A DNA stretch of 26,272 bases, from assembly GCA_964471255.1 (NCBI GenBank), contig CAYYFB010000005.1, positions 1 to 26,272 on the forward strand, in the 5' to 3' direction. Below, piece by piece: positions 2,109-25,636 of the stretch. The stretch is from Candidatus Woesearchaeota archaeon. GTDB taxonomy: Archaea > Nanobdellota > Nanobdellia > CAYMVK01 > CAYYFB01. Numbering within the stretch: position 1 is the stretch's first letter; the number at the start of each line of letters is the position of its first letter. The notes under the pieces are model-generated. The model did no database searches. It saw nothing but the letters and a program-made list of their open reading frames with translations, and was not told where the DNA came from. Position numbers and translations under genes: made by a program.

Positions 2109-2177
2109 GATATAGCACCCAATTGGAAAATAATGTATTCTGCAAAATAAACACAATGGTTGGTAGCATAGAAGAAA

Positions 2178-2284: not shown

Positions 2285-2348
2285 TCCTTGTCTACATAGG
2301 TATTCTAGGTGTTGTGGTTTATTAGTTTTTAATATCCCTTATCATAAC

Positions 2349-3515: not shown

Positions 3516-3593
3516 GCGGCGGTCGTCTAGCCTGGACTAGGACGCCGGCCCCCCAAGCCGGAGACCCGGGTTCAAATCCCGGCCGCCGCACCA
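3516..3593 (+). tRNA. tRNA-Gly(CCC), CCA encoded; integration target (attL side)
   Basis: GCGGCGG-TC-GTCT-AGCCTGGACTA-GGAC-G-CCGGC-CCCCCAA-GCCGG-AGAC-CCGGG-TTCAAAT-CCCGG-CCGCCGC-A-CCA. Cloverleaf folded by hand. The anticodon loop reads CC-CCC-AA. Confidence 0.8.
3550..3590 (+). repeat. attL core (3' part of tRNA-Gly)
   Basis: CCCCCAAGCCGGAGA-CCCGGGTTCAAATCCCGGCCGCCGCA is repeated at 25595-25636 with one extra T. Confidence 0.85.
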
Positions 3594-3676
3594 CTTATAT
3601 ACCCCCTATATAAATCTTTCCCTGTTGTCCCCGATAAGTTTTATGCCTCTGGGACTGTCCCAAATCATGTGGAAAC

Positions 3677-4978
3677 ATGGGACAGCCAGCTTGTATACTG
3701 GAGGAGTGGCAGGCACGGGAGATACTTCAGTATCTGTATCGTAGACACAGGAGTATCCGAAAACTCGCTGAGTTATTACATACAAGTAAGAGTACTTTAC
3801 ACCGGTGTTTGCAAGGGAAACAATCCATACCAGTATCCATAAGAGCTCGCTTATGTGAAGCACTGCCAGAGGAAGAATTACTAGAAGTACTTAAAGGCAA
3901 GGAGCTACTTAGGAAATATGGCTTAATAGATAATGATGGCAGGCTCAACAAAGCACTCCTCCTAGCGCTGATAGATTCGGCCATGCAGGTTGAAACTATA
4001 AAAGAAGAAGTACTCGCCTACCTACTCAAATACTATAAGGGTGAGTTAATGGAGAGATTAGCCGAAACCCTCCCCAAAATAGAGCTGAAATGGAGCGAAG
4101 ACTTCGAGCGATGGCTTACAGAGAAGAAGAGTAAGCCAATCAGTGAACGCACACTACGTGATTACCGTAATCTCTGGCGTAACTGTTTAGAGGGAAAGGT
4201 GCTTGGATGGCACCTATTGAAGCAGCTTGAAGGAAACAAAATGATGTGCAGAGACGGAAAATATCATCCCACGGGATGGGCTAGACAGATATTCAGACGC
4301 TACATCAGATACCTATACTCACAGGGCAAAATAGACTGGGACACCTATTCAAGACTCCTCCTAACAATCCCTGGACGCAAATACGGTCGTAAACTCGTTC
4401 AAAAACCCATCCTAAAGGAGGATGTGATAAATACGCTTAAGAAGCTAAGAGGGGCTAAGAGGCTCGACATATACATGCTCTATCTTCTAATACTGTCGTC
4501 TGCTATAAGATTTGAGCATGCACTTAGAGTCCTGAAGAACTGGAGACCAGATGAAATCATCTACGTTAACTATCTCAACCGCAACATAAGAAGACTTGAA
4601 TGCTTCCAAACACACTGCAGATACTATATAGGTAGGGAGAAAGAACGGAAACCTGTTGGTTTCATGTTCTTTCCTCGTCAATTACTAGAGTTAATAGAGA
4701 AATACAAGGATAGACTACCAAGTAAGAGGAGGATAGAGAAAGTAGTGAAGAAATACGGCTGTCTACCACTATCACATATAAGGACATATGCCCTACGGTT
4801 GATACTCCATGCATTAGGCGATAACGATATCTCGAAATTCATACTCAGCAAGTTCGGAGAATTAACGGTCTCAGCAAGACACTATAGAGACCTATTAGAA
4901 GAAGCTGATAAAATGTATCCCACGTACATTCAATATTTAGAAAACGAATTCGGCAATTATCTAGTATCTTCTCCATAG
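3677..4978 (+). CDS. int: Tyrosine recombinase/integrase (unsplit, pNOB8-like integration mode) with N-terminal HTH
   Basis: 433 aa. HTH 'IRKLAELLHTSKSTLHRCLQG'. Candidate catalytic residues lie in 'SSAIRFEHAL' (R), 'HIRTYALRLIL' (HxxR) and 'SARHYRDLL' (Y). It is adjacent to attL. Confidence 0.85.
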   Translation: MGQPACILEEWQAREILQYLYRRHRSIRKLAELLHTSKSTLHRCLQGKQSIPVSIRARLCEALPEEELLEVLKGKELLRKYGLIDNDGRLNKALLLALIDSAMQVETIKEEVLAYLLKYYKGELMERLAETLPKIELKWSEDFERWLTEKKSKPISERTLRDYRNLWRNCLEGKVLGWHLLKQLEGNKMMCRDGKYHPTGWARQIFRRYIRYLYSQGKIDWDTYSRLLLTIPGRKYGRKLVQKPILKEDVINTLKKLRGAKRLDIYMLYLLILSSAIRFEHALRVLKNWRPDEIIYVNYLNRNIRRLECFQTHCRYYIGREKERKPVGFMFFPRQLLELIEKYKDRLPSKRRIEKVVKKYGCLPLSHIRTYALRLILHALGDNDISKFILSKFGELTVSARHYRDLLEEADKMYPTYIQYLENEFGNYLVSSP

Positions 4979-4997: not shown

Positions 4998-5867
4998 ATG
5001 AAGAAGAGTCGAGTTGTCGCAGTAGTCGCTGTAGTTGTCGTTGTGCTCGTGGTACTTGCTATGCTCATGCACGTACCCCCGTTCACTGGTAATGGTAGTC
5101 CGGTCTCCACGCCATCAACCCCGTCTGGCACCAGCACCGGCACCAGCCCATCAACCAGCACCACTGCCCCTGGCTATGTCAAGCTCGACAGCCTCAACGG
5201 CACAATAGTATCGCTGAACGGCGAGGAGATAACCGAGCAGTTATGGTCTAAGATGAGGGACTACAACGCCGGCGACCCAGCAGTAAAACCCTACATAGAC
5301 TGGCTCCGCAAAGCCCTCGCACCCGAACCACACGATGCACTCAATGTCCCTTGGTACCCAAGGTATAGGTACTACTGGTTCAACGACAGACACGGCTGGA
5401 GCGTACCGCTACCATATGAAGACAGCATAACGAGGATAGGATTGGTCAAGCTACCGTTTGGGGTAGGGCTAGTAGTAACAGCCTATCATGCCAGCGACGG
5501 CTTAACCATAATAGTGCACGGCACAGTAATTAACGAAACCGAGTGGAGAGAGTTGCTGAGCAGAACTGTTGCTTTCGCTCCCTATCCATCACCGCCTATT
5601 TACGGGTGGGAATCTTGGGGCGTCATGGCCGGAGACTTCTATAATAATCCTAAAGCAAGATACATTACTAACTGGGTGCTCTGGAGAATTAGCCTCGAAG
5701 GACACGGGAGCTACCTAGATACAGGTAAAGTAAAGGCACCAATCAAGAAAGTTGTTGTCCTCATAGAGATGCCGGTACACGAGAGATATCTTGGCTCTCT
5801 GACGATGACTGGTACTTGCAAAGCGCTGAAGCAGTATACTGGGCAGTACTGGGAGAGCCAGCATTAG
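4998..5867 (+). CDS. Secreted/membrane-anchored protein with Ser/Thr/Pro-rich linker
   Basis: N-terminal hydrophobic segment 'VVAVVAVVVVVLVVLAMLM' is followed by 'SPVSTPSTPSGTSTGTSPSTSTTAPG'. G+C is much higher than in the surrounding sequence. It may continue into 5816-6624 through frame shifts. Confidence 0.6.
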   Translation: MKKSRVVAVVAVVVVVLVVLAMLMHVPPFTGNGSPVSTPSTPSGTSTGTSPSTSTTAPGYVKLDSLNGTIVSLNGEEITEQLWSKMRDYNAGDPAVKPYIDWLRKALAPEPHDALNVPWYPRYRYYWFNDRHGWSVPLPYEDSITRIGLVKLPFGVGLVVTAYHASDGLTIIVHGTVINETEWRELLSRTVAFAPYPSPPIYGWESWGVMAGDFYNNPKARYITNWVLWRISLEGHGSYLDTGKVKAPIKKVVVLIEMPVHERYLGSLTMTGTCKALKQYTGQYWESQH

Positions 5868-6003
5868 CACTAGCTATGAATATAGCATACCAGCCAGACA
5901 CGGATATCTGGCGCCTGTACAGGACAATAACGGTATCAATGACCAAAAGCGTAGTAACTACTGACACGCATCACGCAGAGGAAGAAGGCCCGATGGCTGG
6001 TTC

Positions 6004-6624
6004 ATGTCAAAGACTATAGAGCCGGGGGTTGATATGTCGCCAGTCATGCTTAGAGCATTCAAGGCAGGCGTTTGTGCCGACTACACATCTGCTACTACAC
6101 TCTTCGCATCAAACGCCCTAGGTGCAATAACATCCGCTGTATCCTTACCCTCTCCTAGTGGTATAGGTCATGCACTTTCAGTTCTAGTCCTTCCGTCGAG
6201 TACATTCCGGGCATACGATATAAGATTGCCACTCGACGCTGACCACGACGGCAAGAACGAAACCGGGATAGTAATAGTTGATACCGCAGGCCTAGAAGCA
6301 TCCTACATAAATGATAAAATGGAGGACGTCCAGCTTATCTTACCGTTTATGTGGAACTATAACGAAAATGTAGATGAATGCGTGGAGCGGTATGGATACA
6401 ACCTGTACTGGGTCGGCGTCGCCCAGAGCGACATGGGTCTTCCGAGATGGCTTAAGATGCCTTGGCTTCCAGAGATAATGAGGATGATTAACTATGCCCG
6501 CATAGTTGGCGAGGCACGTAAAGTATTCATTGAGAATTACTACCGACCTGAAGCCGTATTCTACCCAATGCCCGTAGAGCAATTCGTAAAAACAGTAGCT
6601 AACCTTACGGCAATCAAGATGTGA
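6004..6624 (+). CDS. Hypothetical protein, possible transglutaminase-like Cys-His-Asp fold
   Basis: 'AGVCADYTSATTLF...GIGHALSVLVL...VIVDTAG' resembles the C...H...D spacing of transglutaminase-like cysteine peptidases. Assignment is weak and by eye. The frame is open upstream to 5965. Confidence 0.4.
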   Translation: MSKTIEPGVDMSPVMLRAFKAGVCADYTSATTLFASNALGAITSAVSLPSPSGIGHALSVLVLPSSTFRAYDIRLPLDADHDGKNETGIVIVDTAGLEASYINDKMEDVQLILPFMWNYNENVDECVERYGYNLYWVGVAQSDMGLPRWLKMPWLPEIMRMINYARIVGEARKVFIENYYRPEAVFYPMPVEQFVKTVANLTAIKM

Positions 6625-6633
6625 ACAGAGTAC

Positions 6634-7578
6634 ATGCCTCCCGGCTACACTCTAGGCGTCAGCAAGGTAGTAGGCAGGATACCGGTAGTTGATGCCGGGG
6701 AAACACCGAGTCTCTGCAATACATCAGTAGTCTGCCATACAGTAGAGTTCAAAATAGTGCTCAGCAGTGGCGACGGCAAACACTACACCGGCTCGGTGGT
6801 CGCCAATGCTAGAAACATTACGGTATCGGCAACGCTCATCACCTACCTAAGAGACTTTAACGAGTACGTTATGAACACGACGATATACATCGACGGCACA
6901 CCGGTCTTTCATGCCGATGAGCTGAGATTAGTGTACTCGCTCTACACGGGAAGCTGTTCAAAGACAGTCCCAGTCGAGTACAACAACGAACCCATAGCAT
7001 ACATACTTACTCTGGAACTCTCAACCACCAATAAGAACGAAAATAACGACACAGGAAGCGAAAACAACACCAGCCCCGGCAACAAAGTAGTCAACACTAT
7101 CGTCCAGCTATCACCAATATACATCAACGAATCCACGTCTTGGGGCGAGATGCCTGTGCTGGATAGGCTGGTGGGCACCAGTATAGTTAACGCAACCAAC
7201 ATCACGGTCGAGGCCTTCTATACGGGGGACGGTTACGATGTCCATATTTATATCAATAGCACGCACGCCTTCGACACCCATACAGCTCTCCCTGCAACAC
7301 TAGAGTTCAGCTACGACGGAGCAGAGTATCGGATAGATGTTATACTACCTAGTCCACCAGTACTCAACCAGACCATTACATCAGAACTTGTACCAGTAGA
7401 TGAGACGCAGGTGGCCCTGCCGAACGGCACGGTAGTTAATGTAATCATCTACATGGTGAACCAAACAACAAAGATAGAGATAAACAACATAACCATAGTG
7501 GTGTACGGCTACGTGTCGAGGCTACAGATAGATTTGGATATATACGTGTTCGGCGTTCCCCAGCAGAGTATAATGTAA
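6634..7578 (+). CDS. Extracellular protein rich in N-glycosylation sequons
   Basis: 314 aa with about 13 N-x-S/T sequons (NTS, NIT, NTT, NDT, NES, NAT, NST, NQT, NGT...). An open frame continues in another phase to the stop at 7737-7739. Confidence 0.6.
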   Translation: MPPGYTLGVSKVVGRIPVVDAGETPSLCNTSVVCHTVEFKIVLSSGDGKHYTGSVVANARNITVSATLITYLRDFNEYVMNTTIYIDGTPVFHADELRLVYSLYTGSCSKTVPVEYNNEPIAYILTLELSTTNKNENNDTGSENNTSPGNKVVNTIVQLSPIYINESTSWGEMPVLDRLVGTSIVNATNITVEAFYTGDGYDVHIYINSTHAFDTHTALPATLEFSYDGAEYRIDVILPSPPVLNQTITSELVPVDETQVALPNGTVVNVIIYMVNQTTKIEINNITIVVYGYVSRLQIDLDIYVFGVPQQSIM

Positions 7579-8116: not shown

Positions 8117-9427
8117 TCACCTCTTGGTAAGATGTTGTTTTAATGAAGATTTCAGTCTTTCGCTATCGTTCTTTAATAGTTCATCAAGTTCGCTTACTAA
8201 CCTATGTCCCTCTTCTACTAAGGCATCGAAGTTACGTGGGACTCTTATACCTATTGATTCAAGGGTTTCCCTAATTGATTTTTTAACAAACGTTACTATA
8301 TACTCGGAGCCTTCGTAGTAGAAGTGAGTGAATCTTGGCACTATGTTTAGCGACCAGTCGCTTAGCCATATACCCTTAATCATATCCTCCAGTGTGTAGC
8401 CGTGTCTTTTCGCATGTTCTAGTTCTTTCCTAAGCTCCGATAAAACCTCTTCTTCAGTCTTATCAGCAAACTCGTTGATTTCTATAATCTTTCCTAGCTC
8501 ATCCTCATACACTATATACTTTGGTTTTCCTTTCTTCTCCTTAAATGAGAAATATGTTGCTACTATACTGTCGAGAATCATTCCTGCTCTTGCTAGCTTA
8601 TACAACTGCATGAGTTTATTCCTTCTCTCCTTGCCAAGAATAGGCTCTAAATAGTTCATAACTCTCTCTACAATATCCTCGTCATAAATTCTCATGTGTG
8701 CTAATAACATAGCATCACTATCGCCCTCTTCGATAGAATATCTCAGTTGGTCGTAGAGTTCTCTTTCATCTTCGGTTTCGTCAATGAGGTGTCTAGGCGG
8801 ATAAGCAACAAGCACAATCTTTTCTAGTTCTCTGATTTTACGCCAAACCTCTTTATCCTCGCCACTCATAATTAATGCTTCGTCAATTACTCCTGAAGTA
8901 TTAACAGACTTATTGAGTAGCTTCTCACCGAAATCAACGTACTCTCTTATCACATCAACTAGTATCGGTTGTCCATTAACTTCTTTTGGAATATGCCTTA
9001 TGAGTATCTTATATAGTTCAGCTATTTCCCGAGCTGGTAGTCCGTCTCCATCAATGCCTGAACGCTCTCCAATGATGTAGGGTAAGCTGTTTAATATGAA
9101 CTCCCTTACTGCAATGTAGGGTATAGGGGCCTTCTTAACGTCTTTTGACATCTTAGCGGTTATACCTAACTCGACGATTGCATTGAATATATTGGCGAGC
9201 CTTATCAATAAAACCTCTAATATTGCTTTATAGATAGGGTTTTCTTCTATATTGCGTGGTAGACCGAATATAATTCCTTCAACAAGAGTCCATAAGTGCT
9301 CGCCAATTCTCCATTCATATATCATTGAGTCTCCGTATTTCTCACGTATCTCTCTAATAAGCTCGCTTACTTGGAATGATTTCGGCGTTATCTTTAGCCT
9401 ATACTTGCCTCTCTCCACTTGCTCCAA
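8117..9427 (-). CDS. Large hypothetical protein with N-terminal winged-helix-like region (5' end unresolved)
   Basis: 436-aa ORF. The same frame stays open upstream without a start codon ('KKGSILKFKDIHEEFVKNGIVFNIRHRGNTRRILRQLIEKGYLEQVERGKYRL', wHTH-like). A second frame carries a GTG at 9642. The two would join at the T6 run at 9549-9554. Confidence 0.6.
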   Translation of the reverse strand: MEQVERGKYRLKITPKSFQVSELIREIREKYGDSMIYEWRIGEHLWTLVEGIIFGLPRNIEENPIYKAILEVLLIRLANIFNAIVELGITAKMSKDVKKAPIPYIAVREFILNSLPYIIGERSGIDGDGLPAREIAELYKILIRHIPKEVNGQPILVDVIREYVDFGEKLLNKSVNTSGVIDEALIMSGEDKEVWRKIRELEKIVLVAYPPRHLIDETEDERELYDQLRYSIEEGDSDAMLLAHMRIYDEDIVERVMNYLEPILGKERRNKLMQLYKLARAGMILDSIVATYFSFKEKKGKPKYIVYEDELGKIIEINEFADKTEEEVLSELRKELEHAKRHGYTLEDMIKGIWLSDWSLNIVPRFTHFYYEGSEYIVTFVKKSIRETLESIGIRVPRNFDALVEEGHRLVSELDELLKNDSERLKSSLKQHLTKR

Positions 9428-9775
9428 ATACCCCTTCTCAATAAGTTGTCTTAATATTCTCCTCGTATTTCCCCTATGTCTAATGTTAAAGACTATTCCA
9501 TTCTTAACGAACTCCTCGTGTATATCCTTAAACTTTAGGATACTGCCCTTTTTTGTTGAAGGCTAGCTAACACATTTATTATCTTGCTAATTCTCCACTC
9601 ATTCTCAATGTAGCTTGGACGACCTCTATACACAGTCCACACCTGTAAATGTGAATAGCATAGAATCCTTAAATTGTTGCCTAAATTGATAACAAGTTGT
9701 CTATTCAAAATAGATATGCGAATTTAGACACTAATATTCTAGTAACAGAGATGTTGATTGAAAGGTGGGGACTTG

Positions 9776-10780
9776 ATGGCTGATTCGCCTATAATAACGT
9801 TCATCTTGCAATTGGTAATACCTTGGATTGTTTATCTCATACTAGTTTTTATGCTTGCATGGTATTACAGAGAATACGTTAAGGGCGGTGCTAGATGGTG
9901 GATGTCTATAGTTAAGCTGTTCCTTATAGGATTCTCGGCTGTTATGTTTCTTTATGGTTTTTCTATCGTGTACAGTATAGTTGGAACTTCTGTTTTATAC
10001 CCTCTTACGATGGCTGTCGCTATGGCTGGTCTTATTGTATATAGGGTTAGGGTGGGTAATTATGGTTGCGAAAAGGAGGAAGAGCGGGAAATAAATGGTG
10101 TTAAATACGTTCTATGCTATACTGATGTTATTAATGCTTGGTATAATCAAAGAACCGGGAAAATCTATGTGAGTAAAGCATTAGCTGAACGCCTAACAGA
10201 TAATGAGCTTAAAGCCGTTATATATCATGAAGAGGGCCATGCTCGGAATAAATGGCTAGGCCGTATATCTACGTTTCTATTTGGGTTGTGGATATTTGCT
10301 TTAGCGGGTATAATGGTTATCCTAGTTCTCTTATGGAGGTCTCCTCTTTCTGTACAGCAGTTCTTAACCGGGATTAGTGTTGTATATGGCGTTGCATCCA
10401 TTCTCACACTATGTGCGATTGTTCCTAGCTGGATTGCCGAACATGAATCTGATAGAAGGGCTTTGGAAAAAGCTGGCTTGAATCCAATAATCAATGCTCT
10501 CATAAAAGTCAATGTCTATGGAACATTAAAGAGCGCAGGACTCCTTGGAATGGTTGATGTATGCCAAATAAAGAATATAGAGAATCCACAAGAGATACGT
10601 GAGAGGATTGGCTCGTTTACTATGCTGACTCTCATATTGCTAACCTATGGACTGATGTTTCCAAAATGGATAGGAGAATATGTACAAAAGCCTATCTATT
10701 ACACTCATCCTTCTCTCAAGCTTAGAATTGCCCTATTATTGCACCAAGCAGAGACTATCAAGAAAAGTAAAGACACCTAG
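9776..10780 (+). CDS. Polytopic membrane Zn-metalloprotease (M48/M56-like, HExxH)
   Basis: 'AVIYHEEGHARNKW' (HExxH) and a downstream 'AEHESDRRA' (candidate third ligand Glu) sit among several TM segments. ATG 9776 is preferred over TTG 9758 because an AGGTGGGG motif lies upstream. Confidence 0.7.
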   Translation: MADSPIITFILQLVIPWIVYLILVFMLAWYYREYVKGGARWWMSIVKLFLIGFSAVMFLYGFSIVYSIVGTSVLYPLTMAVAMAGLIVYRVRVGNYGCEKEEEREINGVKYVLCYTDVINAWYNQRTGKIYVSKALAERLTDNELKAVIYHEEGHARNKWLGRISTFLFGLWIFALAGIMVILVLLWRSPLSVQQFLTGISVVYGVASILTLCAIVPSWIAEHESDRRALEKAGLNPIINALIKVNVYGTLKSAGLLGMVDVCQIKNIENPQEIRERIGSFTMLTLILLTYGLMFPKWIGEYVQKPIYYTHPSLKLRIALLLHQAETIKKSKDT

Positions 10781-14816: not shown

Positions 14817-15548
14817 TCAGGACTCGTTCTCATCGTGTTGTTCAGATTCGTAGATGTTTTTGCTAGTTCTTCTAGTTGAAGATGGTGAAGATATGCCGAG
14901 TGCTCGTAGTCCATCCATGTCATTGCCTGTTTTTAGCCCAAGCACTAGATTTTCGAGTTGTGGTATCGCTTTCTTAGCAAGTAGCTGAAGTTTACCTACA
15001 TTAACGGCATGTAATTCTGGGTCAGGTGTAGGTATAATGATAATGTATTTAACTTTCTTTCTTGGAAACATTACTGACAAATAGAAAACTCTCGCTGGAG
15101 TTCTATAGAATATGTAGTCAATAACATTAACTGAGCCGAATCTTTTCATAAACTCTGTTAGAACATCTCTCCTCAACGACATTGATGCTTGGCTTTCCAA
15201 AAGCCGGGTTAGCGGATATATGCCGAGCGGTGTTGGGTAGCATCGGTACATATCACAGAAGACAAGCTCGGTTATCCGCCTGGATGGGGTTGAGTCAAAT
15301 AATCTACTCAGAATTAATTCTATAAAATTTATTGGAAATTTCATAACTTTTCCAGAATTCTTGTCTTGGTCTTTCATACACTCCTCCAAAATATATAGTC
15401 CACAATAATTCCTTCTTTTTGCATACTCTCTAGTATATATATAAATTCCATAAACAGTCTTTCTGCCTAACGTACACCTACCCCTAATTTCCAACAAGTC
15501 GCTATATTCATTTAGTGAGTAGTCTATTTGTACGGGTTCTTCTGACAT
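14817..15548 (-). CDS. Hypothetical protein (operon gene 4)
   Basis: 243-aa ORF. It overlaps the 3' end of the upstream gene by 41 nt. The C-terminal tail is acidic and Ser-rich. No family recognised. Confidence 0.55.
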   Translation of the reverse strand: MSEEPVQIDYSLNEYSDLLEIRGRCTLGRKTVYGIYIYTREYAKRRNYCGLYILEECMKDQDKNSGKVMKFPINFIELILSRLFDSTPSRRITELVFCDMYRCYPTPLGIYPLTRLLESQASMSLRRDVLTEFMKRFGSVNVIDYIFYRTPARVFYLSVMFPRKKVKYIIIIPTPDPELHAVNVGKLQLLAKKAIPQLENLVLGLKTGNDMDGLRALGISSPSSTRRTSKNIYESEQHDENES

Positions 15549-16212
15549 TTTTGCACCTGAAAGGATAAACTACTATAGACCTGTATCTGTTGGCAAATCC
15601 TAGAAATAACTTATCAACAGACAAGCCCGTATATCTCCTTAGCTCATTTACAAATATAATAGGTACCAGGCCAGACATCAAATTAGATAAAACATATACT
15701 CGCTTAGGCTTATTTATCCGGATAATCTTATCAAGAGCGTCCGGAGATATGGAACACAACACTCGTTGTTGCTTATTAGCAAATATATTCTTCATAGGAC
15801 ACTCAGGGATATTAGTAACTCTTAGCCGCATCCAAACGCTTTTGTCATACCTCCTAACTGAAGAATAAGATAGCCATATCATTCTTTTTTCTCCACCAGA
15901 AAATACTTCTTCCTCACTTATCTCGTTCCTCCTGATTTTATCACATAATACCTTCTTACCGGCAAAAAGTAAGTAGGTACCATGTTTAATTTCATTTGTA
16001 TCAAAATCAATAGGCTTTAATCTGAATTCGTTGAGAAAATCAGCTCTTATGCCTATAAATTCTCCTGTTTCTTCAATAAAGTAGTCGTTGACGAAGATAA
16101 ATGCGATGTTTCTTAGTTCTCCACTCTTCATCGCCACCCTATATAGCCACCATGCATAGTAGAGTCTACGCAGTACAGTATTATGTTTTCGGCAAGAGCT
16201 ACGACCATTCAT
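15508..16212 (-). CDS. Hypothetical protein (operon gene 3)
   Basis: Long ORF. ATG 16212 ('MNGRSSCRKH') is preferred over the tracked TTG 16266. It overlaps the upstream 77-aa gene by 14 nt. Confidence 0.55.
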   Translation of the reverse strand: MNGRSSCRKHNTVLRRLYYAWWLYRVAMKSGELRNIAFIFVNDYFIEETGEFIGIRADFLNEFRLKPIDFDTNEIKHGTYLLFAGKKVLCDKIRRNEISEEEVFSGGEKRMIWLSYSSVRRYDKSVWMRLRVTNIPECPMKNIFANKQQRVLCSISPDALDKIIRINKPKRVYVLSNLMSGLVPIIFVNELRRYTGLSVDKLFLGFANRYRSIVVYPFRCKNVRRTRTNRLLTK

Positions 16213-16432
16213 CCCAAAATAATTCTCTTGCTTCTTTAGCCCAATTGATAACGTAGTCGAATTCAAATTGCATTACGCTTTTATTAATTTTGTGAACTAT
16301 GTTTTCCCTAAGCTCTTCCTCCGTTACTGGCTCGGCTACTATTATGCCAAACCGATAACTTGGTAATAACGCTAGTCCACGTAATTTATGTGGGTTTTTC
16401 TTCATCCACCAATAAGCTTCTCTGAAATTCAT
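16199..16432 (-). CDS. Small hypothetical protein (operon gene 2)
   Basis: 77-aa ORF preceded by an A/T-rich TATA-like 'ACATATATG' about 30 nt upstream. It overlaps the next gene's start. Confidence 0.5.
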   Translation of the reverse strand: MNFREAYWWMKKNPHKLRGLALLPSYRFGIIVAEPVTEEELRENIVHKINKSVMQFEFDYVINWAKEARELFWDEWS

Positions 16433-17318: not shown

Positions 17319-18035
17319 GTGAGTGTTGTTGAGGAAAAGGAGGCAAGGACACTTACCAGGAAGAATATTGATAAGCCCCGCCAAGAGTCTTTCGGGCTCG
17401 ATAGAAGGGTGCTAGTTGCTCACCCCGGTGATAGAGTTGGCTTCTCAGTCCGGATTAATGGGCCTCCAAGACATGTTGTGAGTGTGGAGGTTAGAGGTAT
17501 ACCTTCTAGTGTAGCCGAGGTGACAGTAAGCCCTTATAGAGCTGTAGCTCCATATACAGCGGAGATATCATTAGCTGTTAGAGGATATGCTGAGCCTGGT
17601 CTCTATCCCTTCATCGTAGTAATCAATAATATAACTATAGGTCGACCTATTGGAGTAGAGAAACTAGGCCCCCTCATTCTGCCAAGAGAGCTCTCACTAA
17701 GCCAATATGCAAGGCTAAGAAGATTGTACTACCGAGAAAAGCTGGGGGCACAGGGAGTCCTATGGTACCTAATAGCCAGGGTCTATAAGAACGAGGCTAG
17801 CTTTATGGAACTGAAAAGGGTCTACGAGTTTATACGAGGAGGTCCAATAAGGAAAGCTACGATAGCGAAGATACTCAAACAAATGATTAGGAAAGACCTC
17901 ATCAAGAAGGATAAAGACGGAAAATATTACCCGGTAGTGGCTAGAGAGGAGATAGCATTTAGTAGGATAAACCGAAGTAGGGTCAGAATACGTCATACTA
18001 CAGAGAAAACAGTAGGGAAAGCGAAAGAGAGCTAG
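17319..18035 (+). CDS. Hypothetical protein with C-terminal winged-helix-like segment
   Basis: GTG start preceded by GGAGGTGG. 'FMELKRVYEFIRGGPIRKATIAKILKQMIRKDLIKKDKDGKYYPV' looks like a wHTH. A stop-free frame (17981-18301, 89+ codons, no start codon) continues it after a frame change. Confidence 0.55.
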   Translation: MSVVEEKEARTLTRKNIDKPRQESFGLDRRVLVAHPGDRVGFSVRINGPPRHVVSVEVRGIPSSVAEVTVSPYRAVAPYTAEISLAVRGYAEPGLYPFIVVINNITIGRPIGVEKLGPLILPRELSLSQYARLRRLYYREKLGAQGVLWYLIARVYKNEASFMELKRVYEFIRGGPIRKATIAKILKQMIRKDLIKKDKDGKYYPVVAREEIAFSRINRSRVRIRHTTEKTVGKAKES

Positions 18036-18293
18036 AAACACGAGTAGGTAGACACGGGCCATATGAAGCCAGATTAGCTTTCAAAAGAGCGTGGAAGATA
18101 GCTCTGAAGCATAATAGTCTGGTAGCTGCATATTTCTTAGTCTATAGCTTATTAGGTGTTAGAGAAACTGGTATTCTACTCCTATGGCTCAACGCCATGT
18201 TCGTATACTGTGAGCAGAAGACTGGGTTCTGCCATTACTTCTATTCCAGCTACTTCACCAATATTTTCAACTACGGGCTTGAAGCAAGGTATA

Positions 18294-18638
18294 ATGTATA
18301 GAGACACGATAGAGTACCAGAAAGCGATACAGACAGCGAACAAGTATATCAGGAAACACTATAGGAGTCATCAGGTTGCACGCCGACTACATTATAAATT
18401 AAAAGAGGAGAAGTATATAGAATATGATGACGATGTACTCAACCTAGAAATAATACGCTATAATGATGGTGATATAGGCCTTAGAATATGGGACAACAGT
18501 ATGGAGGAGATATTATACGAAGAAAACATAGTAAACAAGACAATAACTAAGACGGAAATCAAGCCAGCTTATCCATTCGAACACGTATATCAGCATAACG
18601 AAGAAACATACCTCTATAAACCAGGAGGCATATACTAG
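18294..18638 (+). CDS. Small hypothetical protein
   Basis: ATG 18294 overlaps the stop (18299-18301) of the preceding open frame (ATGTATAG). The tracked TTG 18156 start lies in sequence that is better explained by the other frame. Confidence 0.45.
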   Translation: MYRDTIEYQKAIQTANKYIRKHYRSHQVARRLHYKLKEEKYIEYDDDVLNLEIIRYNDGDIGLRIWDNSMEEILYEENIVNKTITKTEIKPAYPFEHVYQHNEETYLYKPGGIY

Positions 18639-18715: not shown

Positions 18716-19867
18716 GTGGCAGGTCGGGAATTGATATTGAAGCATAGAATGAATCCCTTGCTGGTTTTATCTAATATTATGAAGGGGGTTTCGAGCAGAG
18801 CCAATAAATTTCTAGATGAATCCTGGACCGTATTTAATAATTATATGACTTATAAATTTTTAAAGAAGAACGAAAATAGAGTAAAGTACGCTGTTCAGAA
18901 AGCCGAGGAGCTTGCTCCGTTATTCGCAAAAGTTATTCAAGAAATTCCAACTGATAGTATGCTTGAAGCCGCTGTGTTGCTTTACTTTATCCTAGAGTAT
19001 GAAGGTATTTCTAAACGATACGAAGACACCTTGGTTAGACCAGCTTTGAGCTTCATTTCAAGATGTATAAGAGACTACAATAGAGGAATAGCAACGCTGG
19101 AATCCTCTCCCGCACTTAGCAGATGCATAGGTCTCTCCTATATCTTCATAGATAAGTTAAGCAGGGAGTATAAAAAAGTGCTTGAGGAATTGCTTAAACG
19201 TTGTGATGAACCAGAGTCCCCAAATGAATATTTCTGCCTATATGCATCGTTTTCAAGCACATTAAAAGCTATTTTAGACAGAGAAGAAAAAGATGAAGTA
19301 CTTTGCAGACGCGTAGCTAATGTATCTAAGTCATTTAGCAGGTATGGTACATTAGAGACTATAACGTTAATGCTCCTAACAACAGGTCTATCGCTACGTA
19401 TTGGTTGTAGGCACGAAGCCATATCACTAAAGCTATTCCAGAAACTTGCTAAGGTACTTGAAACTAATATTAGAACCCTACTCAGAAGAAGCAGAGGCAC
19501 TTGGCAAGCCCTCTCTCTAGCACTAAAACTTAACAAATTAGAAAAACTCGCTTATGTCCCTGAGGGTTATATAGTCCTAAGAGAAAAAATAGCTAGGCGA
19601 ATTGCTAATATTCTCTCAGCGAAAAAGAAAACAACTGAGAACTTACTAGTATATTTATCATTAATTATAGGCGTCAGTTCTCTAGTAACAAGTATTATAG
19701 CGACAGTAATCCAAGGATTACATTATATTAGTATCATGTTTTCTCTAATAGCTAGTTCATTTCTAATACTAGTAGCAACAGTTATATATAGCGAATATAG
19801 GGAGATTCAAAGCCTATTAGATGAACCAGACATTCAAAAGCTCCTAAAGGAAGTAAGCAAAGGCTAG
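18716..19867 (+). CDS. Helical protein with two C-terminal transmembrane helices (candidate membrane effector of the Argonaute locus)
   Basis: 383 aa. GTG start with AAGGGGAG 8 nt upstream. The C-terminus 'LLVYLSLIIGVSSLVTSIIATVIQGLHYISIMFSLIASSFLILVATVIYS' gives 2 TM helices. Its stop is 1 nt before the next gene's start. Confidence 0.65.
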   Translation: MAGRELILKHRMNPLLVLSNIMKGVSSRANKFLDESWTVFNNYMTYKFLKKNENRVKYAVQKAEELAPLFAKVIQEIPTDSMLEAAVLLYFILEYEGISKRYEDTLVRPALSFISRCIRDYNRGIATLESSPALSRCIGLSYIFIDKLSREYKKVLEELLKRCDEPESPNEYFCLYASFSSTLKAILDREEKDEVLCRRVANVSKSFSRYGTLETITLMLLTTGLSLRIGCRHEAISLKLFQKLAKVLETNIRTLLRRSRGTWQALSLALKLNKLEKLAYVPEGYIVLREKIARRIANILSAKKKTTENLLVYLSLIIGVSSLVTSIIATVIQGLHYISIMFSLIASSFLILVATVIYSEYREIQSLLDEPDIQKLLKEVSKG

Positions 19868-19868
19868 G

Positions 19869-20735
19869 GTGAACTCGTTGAAAATAAAGCTACCACTATA
19901 TCAGACTGCGGATGCAGAATTACGTTCTCTAACTTTAAATTATGTCTATTTCCCTATAAAAAATCCCCAAAAATGCCACCGCTCTCTATTTAGCGACCTC
20001 TTATATAATTTATGGTTATCAGGCATAATTTCATATCATCACGAGAATAAATTATATTTTATATTTCAGATACCCTCTAAGAATCTCTTAAATGAATTTA
20101 ATAGACAATTAAACGACTTCATAAAAAACAATATAGACTGTTTTCCTAAGGATTTCGCCGGAAACTCATGGCAGGAAGGAGAAGGTATAGATTTTACCGA
20201 TTTTATTACAGTAACAAATTTATGCCCGGTTGGGTCGCAAAAGAATTTCAACATAACACGTTCTATAGTATATGGGTATTTCCGCAAAATTTATGGATTT
20301 AGAAGGAATGTGAGAGGTAAGGGTACTGTTATATATATTTATAGATTTCCTGAAAATGAAAACACATATATGTATGATGATAAATTTATTCGGCAAGGCA
20401 TTGAAATCCTGTTTGAAATTACTCCGAAAGGAAGAGGAAGAATATGGTTTGATATTGTAACGCATGCTTTTAAAATAGACGAATTAGGAAACACGAAAAG
20501 ACTCTCACACTCCGAAATGAAACAGGAATCAATGAAATTCTATAGAAAATATTTATCATTAGCCCAGATGCGGCCCTGCTTGAGATACAGTAAGTTGCTA
20601 GAGATGCTTAAAGCTTTAGGTATTCAAGATAAAATGGAGTTTAAGTTCTACGTTTGGAGTCCAAGTAAGCAGTTCAAAGAATATAGCATTGTATTCACGA
20701 GCCAATCCCTAGTAAATCTACATAATATATCTTAG
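19869..20735 (+). CDS. Argonaute N-L1-L2/APAZ-like partner protein (candidate)
   Basis: 288 aa, tightly coupled to the upstream gene. The beta-rich sequence resembles the N-terminal half of long pAgos ('IKLPLYQTADAELRSLTLNYVYFPI', 'GIEILFEITPKGRGRIWFDIVTHAFKID'). Its 3' end overlaps the pAgo 3' end by 18 nt. Family assignment is inferred from context and by eye. Confidence 0.5.
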   Translation: MNSLKIKLPLYQTADAELRSLTLNYVYFPIKNPQKCHRSLFSDLLYNLWLSGIISYHHENKLYFIFQIPSKNLLNEFNRQLNDFIKNNIDCFPKDFAGNSWQEGEGIDFTDFITVTNLCPVGSQKNFNITRSIVYGYFRKIYGFRRNVRGKGTVIYIYRFPENENTYMYDDKFIRQGIEILFEITPKGRGRIWFDIVTHAFKIDELGNTKRLSHSEMKQESMKFYRKYLSLAQMRPCLRYSKLLEMLKALGIQDKMEFKFYVWSPSKQFKEYSIVFTSQSLVNLHNIS

Positions 20736-22268
20736 AGCTCTTGGCTCTCTTTGTAGAACAGCTATTAAATCTTTTGCAAAGTTGATACTTTTTTCATCCC
20801 CTCGTCCGTATAATAATGAGAGTATATCAGCAATTCTTTTCGCGTATTTTTCAACAAATGGTCTTTTCGGCCAGGATGTGTAGGCTTCCCAATCGAGTTT
20901 TCCTAGAAGTAATGCTAGCCTACATGTATAGAGGGCTATATCAGTATCTATTTGTGGTTTATCTACTAGCGTTTCTGTCTGAGTATTGTAAAGTATTTCT
21001 AATTCTAATGGCATCGGAGTGGTATTTTGTTTATAAATTCTTTTTTCCTCTTCAACAAATTTATGAAGTTCATAATTAAATTTCTTAGTCTTTATAATAC
21101 CTGTTGATAGCAATAATGCTTTAACTGGTTCATTACCTCCTAGTGAATCCTCATCTATGAGACATGTTCCTCTATATGGCCCGTAGTCATCGGTATCTAG
21201 GTCATATATACGTTTAGTAAACCCGGTTTCTTTTACATGTGCTAGAATCCAAATGTTATCTTTCAATACTTCAGTTAAACCTTTAGTTTCATCTGGGTGA
21301 ATTATAGTTGTCTGAAATATGACATATTTGTTGATGTTCCATGCGCTAAGGGAATTCTTGATATGGGTAAAAATGTTCTTTACAACTCTAGCTGGGATAT
21401 ATAATCCAGTAGTCTTTAGGGATTCTATATCAAGCTCTGATTCTTCAAAAACCTCACTATAGATGTAGCTTCGTATCTCTTTACCTACATAGGCGATTGA
21501 GTATGAAACCCCGGCTAGATAACCAGTATTGCCGAGTTTTGAGACTGCTAGACCTACTACTGCTGTATTTTGAAGCATTATGGCATCCTCATCACTTACA
21601 ACCCACGGAATACCACCTGCCTTCGCATATAGCTGTACATAGTTATTGAGCATATATGCAATAAATCCAGGGCATCTTTCCTTTCTTTTATTCCTTTCCA
21701 TACAGTCCTGAATTATTTCATCTACTTTGTCTAGATTTATTATATGCGTAGGTATCTTGTAATATGTTCCATATGCCTTTATTTGATTATATAGGCTATT
21801 ATCCTCTTGAGGTTTATGTCTCCGGTAATCATGGAGCTTTCTAGCTATCAGCATCACTATGTATCTATTTTGTTGATTATTTTGAGAAGCATTCTTCATA
21901 TAATCTACCATGTAAGCGATGCACCTATCAACATTGTACTCGTACACCGGGATTTCAAAGTCAATGTAGAAGTTATAGCGTCTCCGATACTTATTGGCTA
22001 TCCCTTTAATGCCTTCAAGAAAGTTGTTTCCTCGCCTATCTGCTATGAAAGGCTTTACTCTAATTTGTAATGGTATATTACTCGTATAAAATTTTCTAAC
22101 ACCCCTGAATTCAAGCGGATATAATATCTTATCCCTTCCAATGGATAAGTATGGCTCTTTAACATGATATACCTTAAAACCATGTATATGTTCCTGTCGG
22201 ACCTCCTTTGCACCTTTATGCCCTAACTCGGATATTTCTTTAATTACATCAAGTAGAGACATGCTCAT
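20718..22268 (-). CDS. ago: Short prokaryotic Argonaute (MID-PIWI only), catalytic tetrad degenerate
   Basis: 516 aa. MID-like 'YNQIKAYGTYYKIPTHIINL'. PIWI hallmark 'NNYVQLYAKAGGIPWVV'. 'AVVGLAVSK' sits where active pAgos have G-x-D-V. 'WPKRPFVEKYAKRIA' sits where the C-terminal Y-A-(D/H) motif lies. It is too short to contain N/PAZ domains. Confidence 0.8.
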   Translation of the reverse strand: MSMSLLDVIKEISELGHKGAKEVRQEHIHGFKVYHVKEPYLSIGRDKILYPLEFRGVRKFYTSNIPLQIRVKPFIADRRGNNFLEGIKGIANKYRRRYNFYIDFEIPVYEYNVDRCIAYMVDYMKNASQNNQQNRYIVMLIARKLHDYRRHKPQEDNSLYNQIKAYGTYYKIPTHIINLDKVDEIIQDCMERNKRKERCPGFIAYMLNNYVQLYAKAGGIPWVVSDEDAIMLQNTAVVGLAVSKLGNTGYLAGVSYSIAYVGKEIRSYIYSEVFEESELDIESLKTTGLYIPARVVKNIFTHIKNSLSAWNINKYVIFQTTIIHPDETKGLTEVLKDNIWILAHVKETGFTKRIYDLDTDDYGPYRGTCLIDEDSLGGNEPVKALLLSTGIIKTKKFNYELHKFVEEEKRIYKQNTTPMPLELEILYNTQTETLVDKPQIDTDIALYTCRLALLLGKLDWEAYTSWPKRPFVEKYAKRIADILSLLYGRGDEKSINFAKDLIAVLQREPRALRYIM

Positions 22269-22366
22269 ACTCGTAACCCCCTAAACCCTCATGCCTTATC
22301 ATCTCATCAATGAAGTTCAAGAAAGTAGTGGGTCTTTTTGGAAATTTTAGAAAGCAGGTAGCTGTT

Positions 22367-22504
22367 TCAGCATCCTTCATTAGCGATTCTTTCACTATTT
22401 TCAATAACTTCTCCGTTCTCAGTTACTTCCAAGATTTTCCTCGCTTCACGGGGAACTGTAGTCCTGAAGTACCTACCTATCCTGGTCTTTGCAAGTACTG
22501 GCAT
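22367..22504 (-). CDS. AbrB/SpoVT-like small DNA-binding protein (not in ORF track; 45 aa)
   Basis: Hand translation gives MPVLAKTRIGRYFRTTVPREARKILEVTENGEVIENSERIANEGC. The 'R..TVPREARKIL....GEV' pattern is typical of swapped-hairpin AbrB/VapB-type domains. It lies directly upstream of pAgo on the same strand. Confidence 0.5.
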   Translation of the reverse strand: MPVLAKTRIGRYFRTTVPREARKILEVTENGEVIENSERIANEGC

Positions 22505-22515
22505 ATCTAAACCCT

Positions 22516-22533
22516 CTATAGTGTTCACTATAG
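22516..22533. promoter_or_regulatory. Perfect 8-2-8 palindrome CTATAGTG-TT-CACTATAG (candidate operator)
   Basis: It lies between a TATA-like TTTTATAA (reverse complement of 22552-22559) and the AbrB-like ATG (22504). Confidence 0.5.
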
Positions 22534-23021: not shown

Positions 23022-23462
23022 TTAACTATTACTTGGCAAAGTCCTATTCCAAGGAGGCAACTCATGATGTTCTTCCTCATATTTTTTCAGAAGCTCCTCT
23101 TCAAGCTGCTTAGGATTAATACTTGTAACCCAGCTTATCTCTATAAGCTCTAGGTACTCTCTATCGAAGATATAGTAGCGAATTCTTTGTGTGGTTTTAC
23201 CGCCTCTTCCTTCTAAATAATTTTCAACAATCCTCTGATAGATGTCGCTAGTTGAACCAATATAAAGTATATCCGACTCCCCCTTCAGTCTGCCAAAAGA
23301 CCTATTTAGTCTTAATACATATACACCCGATTCGGAAGGGGGTGTAATTTCCCCTGAACTAATGTCTCTTAGCCTATACCAGTTCTTAAATCCATACTTA
23401 CATAAAGTATCTGAGTCCATTAAATTCACCTTTATGTTAGTGTATGCTGGTGGCTTAGACAT
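23022..23462 (-). CDS. GIY-YIG domain nuclease
   Basis: 'SGVYVLRLNRS...ILYIGSTSDIYQRIVENY' matches the GIY...YIG motifs with the downstream Arg. ATG 23462 is chosen because it lies 4 nt after the stop of the upstream gene. The tracked start at 23570 overlaps that gene by 104 nt. Confidence 0.75.
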   Translation of the reverse strand: MSKPPAYTNIKVNLMDSDTLCKYGFKNWYRLRDISSGEITPPSESGVYVLRLNRSFGRLKGESDILYIGSTSDIYQRIVENYLEGRGGKTTQRIRYYIFDREYLELIEISWVTSINPKQLEEELLKKYEEEHHELPPWNRTLPSNS

Positions 23463-23466
23463 ATTT

Positions 23467-24783
23467 TTACCTAGATAAGTTATTATAATACATTTTAATG
23501 TTATGTTTAATTGGTTCTGCTCGTTCACGTATAAAGTCATAATATCTGGATACTTCCCATAACGATTCATCTATAGGTATCATGTGCTTTTCTAGAATAC
23601 TCTCCTCGATTTCCCTAAGATATTCTCTTGGCGGTCTATCACCTACTTGTGAATTCTTCGATTTATTAATTATTGTTATATTACCTAAATTATTGGCTAA
23701 GATATTGAATTCCTCTGCTTCTCCAAGCTCTAATTCATCTCTGTGTTCGTCAAGATAGTTGCGAGGAAAGATGTGATGCTTCGAGAAGTCCTTTTGCCAT
23801 TTACGTCTATATATCTTATACCCTGTCCAGTCGTCAGCATTATTTTTAACAAGTAACATGTATAGTAGGAAAAGGAAGAGCTTCCCTACTTTTCGTGTAG
23901 CATCAATTTCTAATCCCTTCATAACATCAGTTTCGCTTATGTATGTTCTTCCATTATACTTTCTTATATTGTTTATTAGTTCATTATATGGAAAAATGTC
24001 TGAATTTCTGACAGCTATTATATCGCTTTCAAGTTTACTATTAGTCTTTGAAGTATAGTATGTTGTGAAATTTACTAAGACAAACCAGTTCTCAATATTT
24101 TTCTTCTCTGTACCGCTTAGAGTATCCAAAGAATTAATTTGTTGTGTATAGAAATACATGGCAAGGGGTACCAGAGTTATCTGGGAAGGTAAAATATCTG
24201 CTGATGATATCTTTAGCTCTTCCTTGAGCATCTTTAGTGTAATTTCTAAACCATTCCTTACCTTATCAAAGTTCTCTACTAATGTTTTCGTAATCTGTGG
24301 CACATATTTTCTTATTAGAGAACGTAGCTTACTAGGTTCTATAGCTTGTGTTTGCTTAATATTAGCTGTCGCCAACGAATATCTTATAATTGGTTGTAAG
24401 TCTAAATCAAAGGTTTCTTCTGCAAAGTCGTATAGAGACATAATATGTTTCTTTGCCTCCCCGCTCACACGGCCAGCTATATATGAGAGTATTAATTCAA
24501 GTGATTTGATTCTGGCACCATATTTATTGACACGAATAAAAGCCTCTACAAGCATGTCAATAACTTTCTCATCGGCTTTAGGCGTGCTAATTTCATATAT
24601 TGGAACCTCGTAATTCTTAATTGCTGTAGCAAGTTTCTCTATTTTACTAAATGCATCACTTGTGAGATTAGATAATAGTTCTTGTAGTGCACTATACTCG
24701 TTATAAACAATGCCTCTTACAATTGTTGGAAACATCCATGCCTCTACGTGTTCCCTTGTAAAATTTATCAGAACTGTAATCAT
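23467..24783 (-). CDS. DUF1524/His-Me-finger nuclease part of a GmrSD-like type IV restriction enzyme
   Basis: 'KHHIFPRNYLDE...NNLGNITIINKSKNSQVGD' matches the C-terminal HNH-like DUF1524 motif. The N-terminal half is a helical linker region. Confidence 0.7.
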   Translation of the reverse strand: MITVLINFTREHVEAWMFPTIVRGIVYNEYSALQELLSNLTSDAFSKIEKLATAIKNYEVPIYEISTPKADEKVIDMLVEAFIRVNKYGARIKSLELILSYIAGRVSGEAKKHIMSLYDFAEETFDLDLQPIIRYSLATANIKQTQAIEPSKLRSLIRKYVPQITKTLVENFDKVRNGLEITLKMLKEELKISSADILPSQITLVPLAMYFYTQQINSLDTLSGTEKKNIENWFVLVNFTTYYTSKTNSKLESDIIAVRNSDIFPYNELINNIRKYNGRTYISETDVMKGLEIDATRKVGKLFLFLLYMLLVKNNADDWTGYKIYRRKWQKDFSKHHIFPRNYLDEHRDELELGEAEEFNILANNLGNITIINKSKNSQVGDRPPREYLREIEESILEKHMIPIDESLWEVSRYYDFIRERAEPIKHNIKMYYNNLSR

Positions 24784-25156
24784 AACTTATAGGATTTATT
24801 TCTACTATTTCTTTGCCTTTTCTCACACTCCAATTATTAAAGACAAGTAATAATGAAGTAAGACGCTGTTGTCCATCTATGATAAAATACGTTGATGAAG
24901 CCTCTTCCTTTATGTCGCCGATTAATGGTTTAGAAAGCGGGTCTATATCTTCTGGTTTATAACCTTCATGCTTTCTCCATAAGATAATATTACCTACGGG
25001 ATAACCATTCTTTATCGAATCTAATAATGCTAATACATCATCTTCATCCCAAACATATCTTCTCTGAAACGATGGCAGAAGATAATTACTTGTTTCCTCA
25101 ATGTCTTTTATAAGAGAAGGAATACTTTGTTTGTCAACTTTTATCGAGAATGACAA
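24701..25156 (-). CDS. DUF262 (ParB-like NTPase) part of a GmrSD-like enzyme
   Basis: 'LPSFQRRYVWDEDDVLALLDSIKNGYPVGNIILW' and 'FIIDGQQRLTSL' are the DUF262 signatures. TTG start. It overlaps the downstream ORF by 83 nt in another frame. Confidence 0.75.
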   Translation of the reverse strand: MSFSIKVDKQSIPSLIKDIEETSNYLLPSFQRRYVWDEDDVLALLDSIKNGYPVGNIILWRKHEGYKPEDIDPLSKPLIGDIKEEASSTYFIIDGQQRLTSLLLVFNNWSVRKGKEIVEINPISYDYSSDKFYKGTRRGMDVSNNCKRHCL

Positions 25157-25594: not shown

Positions 25595-25636
25595 CCCCCA
25601 AGCCGGAGATCCCGGGTTCAAATCCCGGCCGCCGCA
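25595..25636 (+). repeat. attR core: displaced 3' fragment of tRNA-Gly
   Basis: CCCCCAAGCCGGAGATCCCGGGTTCAAATCCCGGCCGCCGCA. There is no matching tRNA 5' half upstream. It is in the same orientation as the intact tRNA. Confidence 0.85.

Follow-up and report, generated by a model that had tools for sequence, protein, structure and literature searches.

SiAgo-like proteins are an already recognised class of prokaryotic Argonautes (pAgos), within which one system has been characterised so far. In Sulfolobus islandicus M.16.4, that system comprises the Argonaute SiAgo, the associated proteins SiAga1 and SiAga2, and the helix-turn-helix (HTH) protein M164_1615 (10.1101/2021.12.09.471704; PMC11788926; PDB 8ZNJ/9LGW). 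In SiAga2, two C-terminal transmembrane helices follow a soluble domain whose basic pocket binds the head groups of anionic lipids (10.1101/2021.12.09.471704; PMC11788926), and the SiAga2 gene lies upstream of the SiAga1 gene (PMC11788926); the HTH gene M164_1615 is outside the reconstituted functional system. A related arrangement is found in the AfAgo operon of Archaeoglobus fulgidus, which encodes AfAgo-N, AfAgo and Af1317 (PMC10954474; PDB 8PVV/8OLD), and Af1317 was reported by its authors as similar to the membrane effector SiAga2 (PMC10954474). The stretch of DNA analysed here (the window) spans 26,272 nucleotides of contig CAYYFB010000005.1, from an assembly labelled Candidatus Woesearchaeota archaeon (GCA_964471255.1), and contains a short pAgo gene that faces the genes for a 288-aa and a 383-aa protein. 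By analogy with the S. islandicus system, we read this trio, with a probability of about 80%, as a SiAgo-like nucleic-acid-guided abortive-infection module.

The analysis itself contributes to this reading the class of the Argonaute, its apparently dead active site, its guide-end pocket, the Aga1-like fold of one partner and the effector architecture of the other, together with synteny, co-evolution and a setting on a mobile element among other defence genes. The formation of a heterodimer, the type of guide and target, the mode of activation, membrane depolarisation and an abortive outcome are proposed by analogy with the SiAgo literature. Since SiAgo-like pAgos already constitute a recognised class, the locus adds a highly divergent new member to a known class, with variant features in its pocket chemistry, the absence of an HTH regulator and its other host lineages, and with a layout that proves strictly convergent.

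The short Argonaute and its two partner proteins

The initial annotation of the window described four open reading frames (ORFs) at this locus, with a 1-nt gap between the 383-aa and 288-aa genes and an 18-nt overlap between the 3' ends of the 288-aa and pAgo genes. All four ORFs were recovered, the junction between the two partner genes reads TAG-g-GTG, and the overlap extends over positions 20718-20735. The features of the locus are as follows.

18716-19867, + strand, GTG start: 383-aa gene, putative membrane effector (Aga2-like)
19628-19810, + strand: predicted transmembrane hairpin of the 383-aa protein (about residues 305-365), from Kyte-Doolittle values of up to 2.37 and AlphaFold2 helices
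19869-20735, + strand, GTG start: 288-aa gene, Aga1-like partner
20718-22268, - strand: pAgo gene, 516 aa, SiAgo-like short pAgo (MID and PIWI domains)
22367-22528, - strand: small ORF of 53 aa upstream of the pAgo gene, AbrB/SpoVT-like, with its C-terminal half lost

The transcription units converge, the 383-aa gene reading into the 288-aa gene and both facing the pAgo gene. A Shine-Dalgarno-like GGGGAG and an A/T-rich, TATA-like stretch lie ahead of the start of the 383-aa gene. The same trio, with an identical pAgo, has been independently assembled in at least three metagenomes.

The 516-aa protein, which lacks the N and PAZ regions, had been described as carrying the hallmarks of MID and PIWI domains, and profile searches agree with this identification. 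The Pfam Piwi model does not match the window protein, and precomputed PF02171 matches exist for two members of its family; the PADLOC pAgo profile PDLC02436, in turn, matches residues 79-491 of the window protein (E=2.3e-33). Searched with phmmer, the window protein finds SiAgo (PDB 8ZNJ chain A) at E=3.9e-11, and a family profile built from 33 pAgo sequences (A1) matches the same chain, 8znj_A, at E=3.2e-26. The next Argonaute classes by this family profile are 9om4_B (3e-6), the SPARSA Ago (2e-5), AfAgo (2e-3) and RsAgo (5e-3). In a BLASTP alignment, the window protein shares 27% identity with SiAgo across the PIWI domain. Judged by these profile scores, the pAgo appears to belong to the SiAgo-like clade, and not to the short, long-A or long-B pAgos.

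The SiAgo residues named in PMC11788926, covering the catalytic DEDX tetrad and the pocket for the guide 5'-phosphate (5'-P), were mapped onto the window protein through the alignment of the family profile to 8znj_A. The resulting correspondence is given below for SiAgo, the window protein and the 33 members of the family.

DEDX position 1: SiAgo A213; window A241; family A/S
DEDX position 2: SiAgo L257; window L289; family L/I
DEDX position 3: SiAgo T291; window T320; family T/S
DEDX position 4: SiAgo N435; window K477; family K/R/H/Q/E
5'-P pocket position 1: SiAgo H138; window Y160; family Y/F/H
5'-P pocket position 2: SiAgo K142; window K164; family K in 33/33
5'-P pocket position 3: SiAgo Q153; window H175; family H in 33/33
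5'-P pocket position 4: SiAgo Q179; window Q212; family Q in 33/33
5'-P pocket position 5: SiAgo K183; window K216; family K in 33/33

None of the 33 family members has an acidic residue at any of the first three DEDX positions. Two motifs of the window protein, GLAV (G239-L-A241-V) and YAK (Y475-A476-K477), had been singled out as sites of catalytic substitution; both are present and align to SiAgo A213 and N435, respectively, and it is this alignment to the substituted DEDX residues of SiAgo that identifies them as substituted catalytic positions. The active-site residues thus predict a nuclease-dead pAgo. The C-terminal Met of the protein is also invariant among the 33 family members, and the residue pattern at the guide-end pocket points to strong selection on this site.

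Sequence searches with the 288-aa protein, alone or as a profile of 18 sequences (24-64% identity to the window protein), yielded no significant match in Pfam, PADLOC, NCBIfam or the PDB. Its AlphaFold2 model, built on 15 sequences (predicted local distance difference test, pLDDT, 83.5; predicted template-modelling score, pTM, 0.79), obtained 55 Foldseek matches against the PDB at E<=1e-3, and each of the 50 listed matches is an Argonaute N-L1-L2 region, AfAgo-N or an APAZ protein. The first-ranked match is SiAga1 (8znj_B; E=5.6e-9, TM-scores 0.55/0.65, 17% identity), followed by the N-L1-L2 regions of TtAgo, MpAgo and PliAgo; AfAgo-N (E=1.5e-5, TMt 0.54-0.56), SIR2-APAZ (E=7e-5) and TIR-APAZ (E=6e-4) were also matched. 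The earlier suggestion that this protein resembles the N-terminal half of an Argonaute is therefore in line with its predicted structure. Neither Pfam nor PADLOC detects a fused effector domain in the 288-aa protein, which, having no extra domain, is not an APAZ-effector fusion. On the evidence of the model, it would be an Aga1-type partner with an N-L1-L2/APAZ fold. The S. islandicus Ago-Aga1-Aga2 system, which had been put forward as an analogue of the locus, is hence its closest relative both by Ago profile and by the top structural match of the 288-aa protein.

The 383-aa protein likewise has no significant match in Pfam, NCBIfam, PADLOC or PDB sequence searches, alone or as a profile of 13 sequences. 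An exhaustive HMMER search of 1.84 billion (1.84e9) representatives retrieved only 21 clusters, which suggests that the family is confined to this system. In its AlphaFold2 model, built on 19 sequences (pLDDT 88.1, pTM 0.73), residues 14-272 form a soluble domain of thirteen helices, stitched by a small two-stranded sheet (residues 9-12 with 277-280) and followed by two long helices (290-331 and 336-368) and a short C-terminal helix. The two C-terminal transmembrane helices expected from the initial annotation correspond to hydrophobic segments at about residues 309-360, and such paired segments recur in 13/13 diverse relatives. With 49 K/R and 34 D/E, the soluble part carries a net basic charge, and the gene immediately precedes the Aga1-like gene, in the position described for SiAga2. 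The protein therefore resembles SiAga2 in architecture, charge and gene position, and homology between the two is putative, resting on this analogy.

Fold comparisons place the 383-aa model nearest to alpha/alpha barrels (designed helical barrels, transcobalamin, C3d and glucuronyl hydrolase), all of them non-significant, and a fold search of BFVD gave no significant match and no viral relatives. An iterated Ago hidden Markov model did recruit the 383-aa family, but this was profile drift from a single borderline entry (E=7e-4, in a tiny database); because no match is obtained with a clean Ago profile, a link of this family to Argonaute was rejected.

Conservation of the trio across related loci

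Fifty related loci were gathered, 46 of which have enough sequence for their layout to be judged. In all of these (46/46), including the one with an Ago identity of only 32%, the 288-like gene runs towards the pAgo gene in convergent orientation. Where the contig extends far enough, the 288-like gene is immediately preceded by the 383-like gene, with a single exception (L047). The three genes had been predicted to be conserved neighbours, and the convergent arrangement in all 46 loci upholds that prediction; an arrangement kept in this manner is not due to chance.

The exception is the most divergent trio of the family (1378-4694; 32% Ago identity). No similarity to the 383-aa family is detectable for the third gene of this trio (338 aa, 3678-4694, - strand; hhalign probability <1%). 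The helical protein that it encodes has two hydrophobic helices at its C-terminal end, immediately preceded by a matching Y-x-V-I motif. Among pairs below 90% Ago identity, mean pairwise identity is 45% for Ago, 40% for the 288-aa family and 33% for the 383-aa family. By these sequence comparisons, the putative effector diverges fastest and yet appears to keep its build, as indicated by the preserved architecture encoded by the third gene of L047. Between the three proteins, the distance matrices show correlations of r=0.97-0.98, and of rho=0.52-0.60 among pairs with less than 50% Ago identity, which suggests that the trio has been inherited as a unit. A TFIIB gene (5357-6307) is also found near the trio in L047.

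In all, the family encompasses about 37 Ago clusters (at 90% identity), two Desulfurococcales metagenome-assembled genomes (MAGs), one protein labelled Thermofilum adornatum and 41 hot-spring metagenome loci. The two Desulfurococcales MAGs are the closest named genomes, with 70-71% Ago identity, and the protein labelled Thermofilum adornatum is a more distant member. In two loci, L017 (3680-5229) and L046 (3651-5176), the Ago gene is broken into two ORFs, and in L046 the 383-like gene is likewise found in two ORFs (6088-7365); these split genes are either decaying copies or assembly errors.

Other trio loci adjoin a restriction-modification (R-M) system or DUF499/SNF2 genes. In one of them (L006, 1-3622), a DUF499 gene and an SNF2 helicase gene are located near the pAgo trio. 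On the megaplasmid pHLAC01 of Halorubrum lacusprofundi (L051, 3473-8374), a lone, distantly related short pAgo is directly followed by a DUF499 gene, with a DNA methyltransferase also present, and the occurrence of DUF499 near pAgo genes may reflect a recurring defence-island association. A search of viral contigs with a fragment of SiAgo found nothing, and the same fragment retrieved from plasmids only distant, unrelated short pAgos, namely a SPARDA-type pair of Methylosinus and the lone Ago of Halorubrum pHLAC01. The window pAgo found nothing when searched against phages.

Proposed mechanism and rival explanations

In the proposed mechanism, the dead pAgo and the 288-aa Aga1-like protein would form a heterodimer equivalent to a rebuilt, PAZ-less bilobed Argonaute. 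A small guide, probably RNA, would be held by its 5'-phosphate in the MID pocket (Y160/K164/H175/Q212/K216), with the invariant C-terminal Met contributing to this anchoring, and pairing of this guide with complementary invader nucleic acid would induce a conformational change in the heterodimer. The changed heterodimer would then bind the basic soluble domain of the 383-aa membrane protein, the C-terminal hairpin of which, probably as an oligomer, would depolarise or permeabilise the membrane, so that the infected cell would be killed or arrested. Several observations weigh against this interpretation. The predicted pocket differs from that of SiAgo at two positions (Y/F in place of H138 and H in place of Q153), and the guide preference could therefore differ as well. 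Neither partner family is detectably similar in sequence to any solved protein, SiAga1 included, and the fold of the 383-aa protein has no significant match in the PDB. Lastly, no conserved regulator is found beside Ago across the family, whereas S. islandicus has a conserved HTH regulator.

The absence of any sequence or fold link between the 383-aa protein and anything known, together with the tiny and self-contained nature of its family, might alternatively mean that the same sensor has independently recruited an unrelated membrane effector with a new alpha/alpha-barrel-like domain, which could possibly act otherwise, through the binding or remodelling of lipids or by gating another channel. 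The third gene of L047, which is not detectably similar to the family, is in keeping with this view insofar as it implies an effector that either evolves very fast or can be exchanged. We regard such a recruitment as unlikely, if by no means negligible, because gene position, size class, basic charge and the succession of a soluble domain and two C-terminal transmembrane helices all match the published description of SiAga2, because the retention of this architecture and of the Y-x-V-I motif in L047 favours divergence over replacement, and because the 383-aa family co-evolves with the Ago and 288-aa families. A different question is whom the module benefits. The trio lies inside an att-bounded element with its own integrase and includes a putative toxin, so that it might serve the element through addiction or inter-element competition, by stabilising the integrated copy or by shutting out competing plasmids and viruses, rather than strict host antiviral immunity. 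This is quite improbable in our estimation: no antitoxin-like partner is conserved, related trios occur in quite different neighbourhoods (R-M and helicase systems) of the kind typical of defence islands, and the mechanism would in any case be the same, with the beneficiary, and not the function, being what differs. Signs of decay around the trio, including the truncated AbrB-like ORF, the upstream 437-aa gene broken into two ORFs and the split in the neighbouring GmrSD gene, along with the split Ago genes of L017 and L046, could further be taken to mean that the window copy is a non-functional remnant. The three core ORFs, however, are full-length and preserve every family-invariant residue, and the independent assembly of an identical trio in several metagenomes also speaks against decay, making it a highly improbable account of the locus.

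The overlap between the convergent 3' ends had been proposed to yield complementary transcript ends. The overlap is real and the orientation is kept, but its length is not fixed and no synonymous-site constraint accompanies it. Across the 46 loci, it ranges from -43 (a gap) to +27 nt, with modes at 8, 11 and 18 nt and positive values in 34/46, and synonymous-codon identity is not raised in the last 25 codons of either Ago (0.60 vs 0.66 overall) or the 288-aa family (0.61 vs 0.64 overall). In the window, the overlap sets the conserved LRYIM codons at the pAgo C-terminus against an unconserved tail of the 288-aa protein (residues 281-288, pLDDT <50). Promoters, terminators and hairpins do not exceed shuffled expectation in searches with consensus sequences of bacterial (sigma-70, intrinsic terminators), not archaeal, type. 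Since the genes are convergent and their stop codons lie no more than 43 nt apart in all 46 loci, overlapping transcript ends are hard to avoid and, judging from this spacing, likely; nothing in the sequences indicates a sequence-specific RNA function at the overlap. An RNA device that sets the toxin/sensor ratio or seeds Ago guides would account for the strict convergence and close stops and would speak to the guide source of SiAgo-like systems, which is not known, but the varying overlap, the unconserved and poorly modelled 288-aa tail that creates it, and the lack of both synonymous-site elevation and terminator or hairpin signal make it very unlikely. We read the convergent layout instead as an inherited compact arrangement that gives separate promoters to the sensor and to the toxin and its partner. 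A functional requirement for it, whether to adjust the sensor/toxin ratio via transcriptional interference or to provide self-derived RNA that keeps Ago loaded or licensed, seems doubtful. The published text on the SiAgo system does not state the orientation of the S. islandicus genes; if they are also convergent, the layout would be an unremarked class-wide feature, with a bearing on the origin of SiAgo-type guides.

Genomic setting and comparison with described systems

The trio is part of the cargo of an element of about 22 kb integrated at a tRNA-Gly gene, with housekeeping genes outside both ends. The host of this element is read as a Thermoproteota archaeon from a hot spring. The initial annotation had inferred a tRNA-integrated element, and 26-bp att repeats and an integrase gene next to tRNA-Gly substantiate it. 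Beyond attR, a sister contig (L001) carries genes for EamA, a chromate transporter and arginase. The features that define the element are listed below.

3516-3593, + strand: tRNA-Gly(CCC), integration target, located with ARAGORN
3565-3590, within the tRNA-Gly 3' end: attL, 26-bp exact repeat
3677-4978, + strand: integrase, PF16795 archaeal phage integrase (E=5.9e-17)
25611-25636, + strand: attR, 26-bp exact direct repeat of the tRNA-Gly 3' end

Inside the element, GC content reaches 0.49-0.52 at positions 5001-7000, against 0.33-0.41 around them. The three ORFs associated with this high-GC stretch (4998-5867, 6004-6624 and 6634-7578) have no Pfam or PADLOC match, and the stretch may represent a mosaic insertion from another source. 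Further along the element are a 436-aa ORF without matches (8117-9427, - strand), a gene for an M48 peptidase-like protein (9758-10780, + strand), and two overlapping ORFs (14817-16266, - strand) with at most a marginal AbiEi-like match (E=0.0075).

Two ORFs directly upstream of the 383-aa gene (17319-18035 and 18156-18638, + strand) correspond to the N- and C-terminal parts of a single 437-aa gene, which has a weak winged helix-turn-helix signal and is intact in an 85%-identical relative (L018, 8595-9908, - strand). The window copy lacks about 70 central residues, and, because the gene is found in the closest relatives only, it does not form part of the core module. Two additional nuclease systems had been noted beside the locus, and the genes next to pAgo are a GmrSD-like gene (PADLOC HEC-05) and a GIY-YIG nuclease gene. 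The GmrSD-like gene, on the - strand, consists of two overlapping ORFs, GmrSD_N (24701-25156) and GmrSD_C (23467-24783), and is followed by the GIY-YIG nuclease gene (23022-23570). The same GmrSD split is seen in three independent assemblies (L001-L003), and this recurrence suggests that the frameshift or gene split is either genuine or programmed.

The small ORF upstream of the pAgo gene had been taken for an AbrB-like regulator, an assignment that stands for its relatives and fails in part for the window copy. Its intact relatives are AbrB/SpoVT-fold proteins (PF04014, E=1.8e-12), but the window ORF has no Pfam match, has lost its C-terminal half and is probably degenerate. The intact genes share the strand of pAgo and are located upstream of it, as a rule at a distance of 100-500 bp and in one case of 3.8 kb, and are restricted to a close subclade (>=57% Ago identity); in the Thermofilum-type clade, the AbrB homologue sits in an unrelated R-M cluster. 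Being limited to a subclade and truncated in the window, the AbrB-like gene is not a core component of the module.

Set against described pAgo systems, the locus most resembles that of S. islandicus. Like SiAgo, its Argonaute is a short MID-PIWI protein, with three of the four DEDX positions (A, L and T) shared between the two. Both systems have a separate Aga1-type partner of N-L1-L2/APAZ fold without a fused enzyme, although this similarity is predicted for the window protein from its model, and a third protein, in the window a putative counterpart of SiAga2, that combines a basic soluble domain with two C-terminal transmembrane helices, as predicted here and as described for SiAga2, and is encoded directly upstream of the Aga1-type gene. 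Both are also found in a mobile or variable region. The differences are nevertheless substantial. Ago identity is about 27% over PIWI, and the window protein is 57 aa longer than SiAgo; structure-based identity between the 288-aa protein and SiAga1 is 17%, with nothing detected by sequence profiles; and the window pocket reads Y-K-H-Q-K (Y/F/H at the first position in the family), compared to H-K-Q-Q-K in SiAgo. Furthermore, the family has no conserved HTH regulator, an AbrB/SpoVT-type gene being limited to one subclade, and its hosts are Desulfurococcales- and Thermofilum-type archaea.

The locus does not reveal a new principle. What the family adds is comparative depth to a class known from a single example. 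On the one hand, it delineates the features that remain constant, which are the dead A/L/T tetrad predicted from the alignment, the K-x-Q-K part of the pocket, the C-terminus, the modelled Aga1 fold, the two-transmembrane-helix architecture and the effector-then-Aga1 gene order. On the other hand, it identifies as variable the first and third pocket residues, the regulator and the sequence of the effector. It also provides confident models for two partner families without annotation in any of the sources consulted, neither of which sequence methods link to SiAga1 or SiAga2, and its hyperthermophile variants may behave better for solving the still-missing complex with a full-length effector.

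The remaining systems share with the locus some of its components or its proposed outcome. Like the AfAgo operon, the locus has a split Argonaute, with N-L1-L2 and MID-PIWI proteins, plus a third protein. AfAgo, however, is phylogenetically long-B, and the window family profile matches it weakly (E=2e-3); moreover, the genes of the AfAgo operon are co-directional and overlapping, in the order N-Ago-effector, whereas here the putative effector gene and then the Aga1-like gene converge on Ago. The SPARTA, SPARSA and SPARDA systems also pair a dead short pAgo with a partner of APAZ/N-L1-L2 fold, the pair acting there as a sensor with an abortive infection outcome. In those systems, the enzymatic effector (TIR, SIR2, or a nuclease including Mrr/DUF4365/DREN) forms a single fusion protein with APAZ and the genes run in the same direction; in the window, the partner has no effector domain and the putative effector is a separate membrane protein. 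The layout of the SPARDA-type short-pAgo locus that was inspected also differs from the convergent trio, and the family Ago is much nearer to SiAgo than to the SPARSA Ago (3e-26 vs 2e-5). Finally, long-B pAgo systems (PMC10620215) use full-length Agos and unrelated effectors, in contrast to the locus described here, but they too combine an inactive pAgo with a transmembrane effector that causes abortive infection, which is the outcome proposed for the convergent trio.

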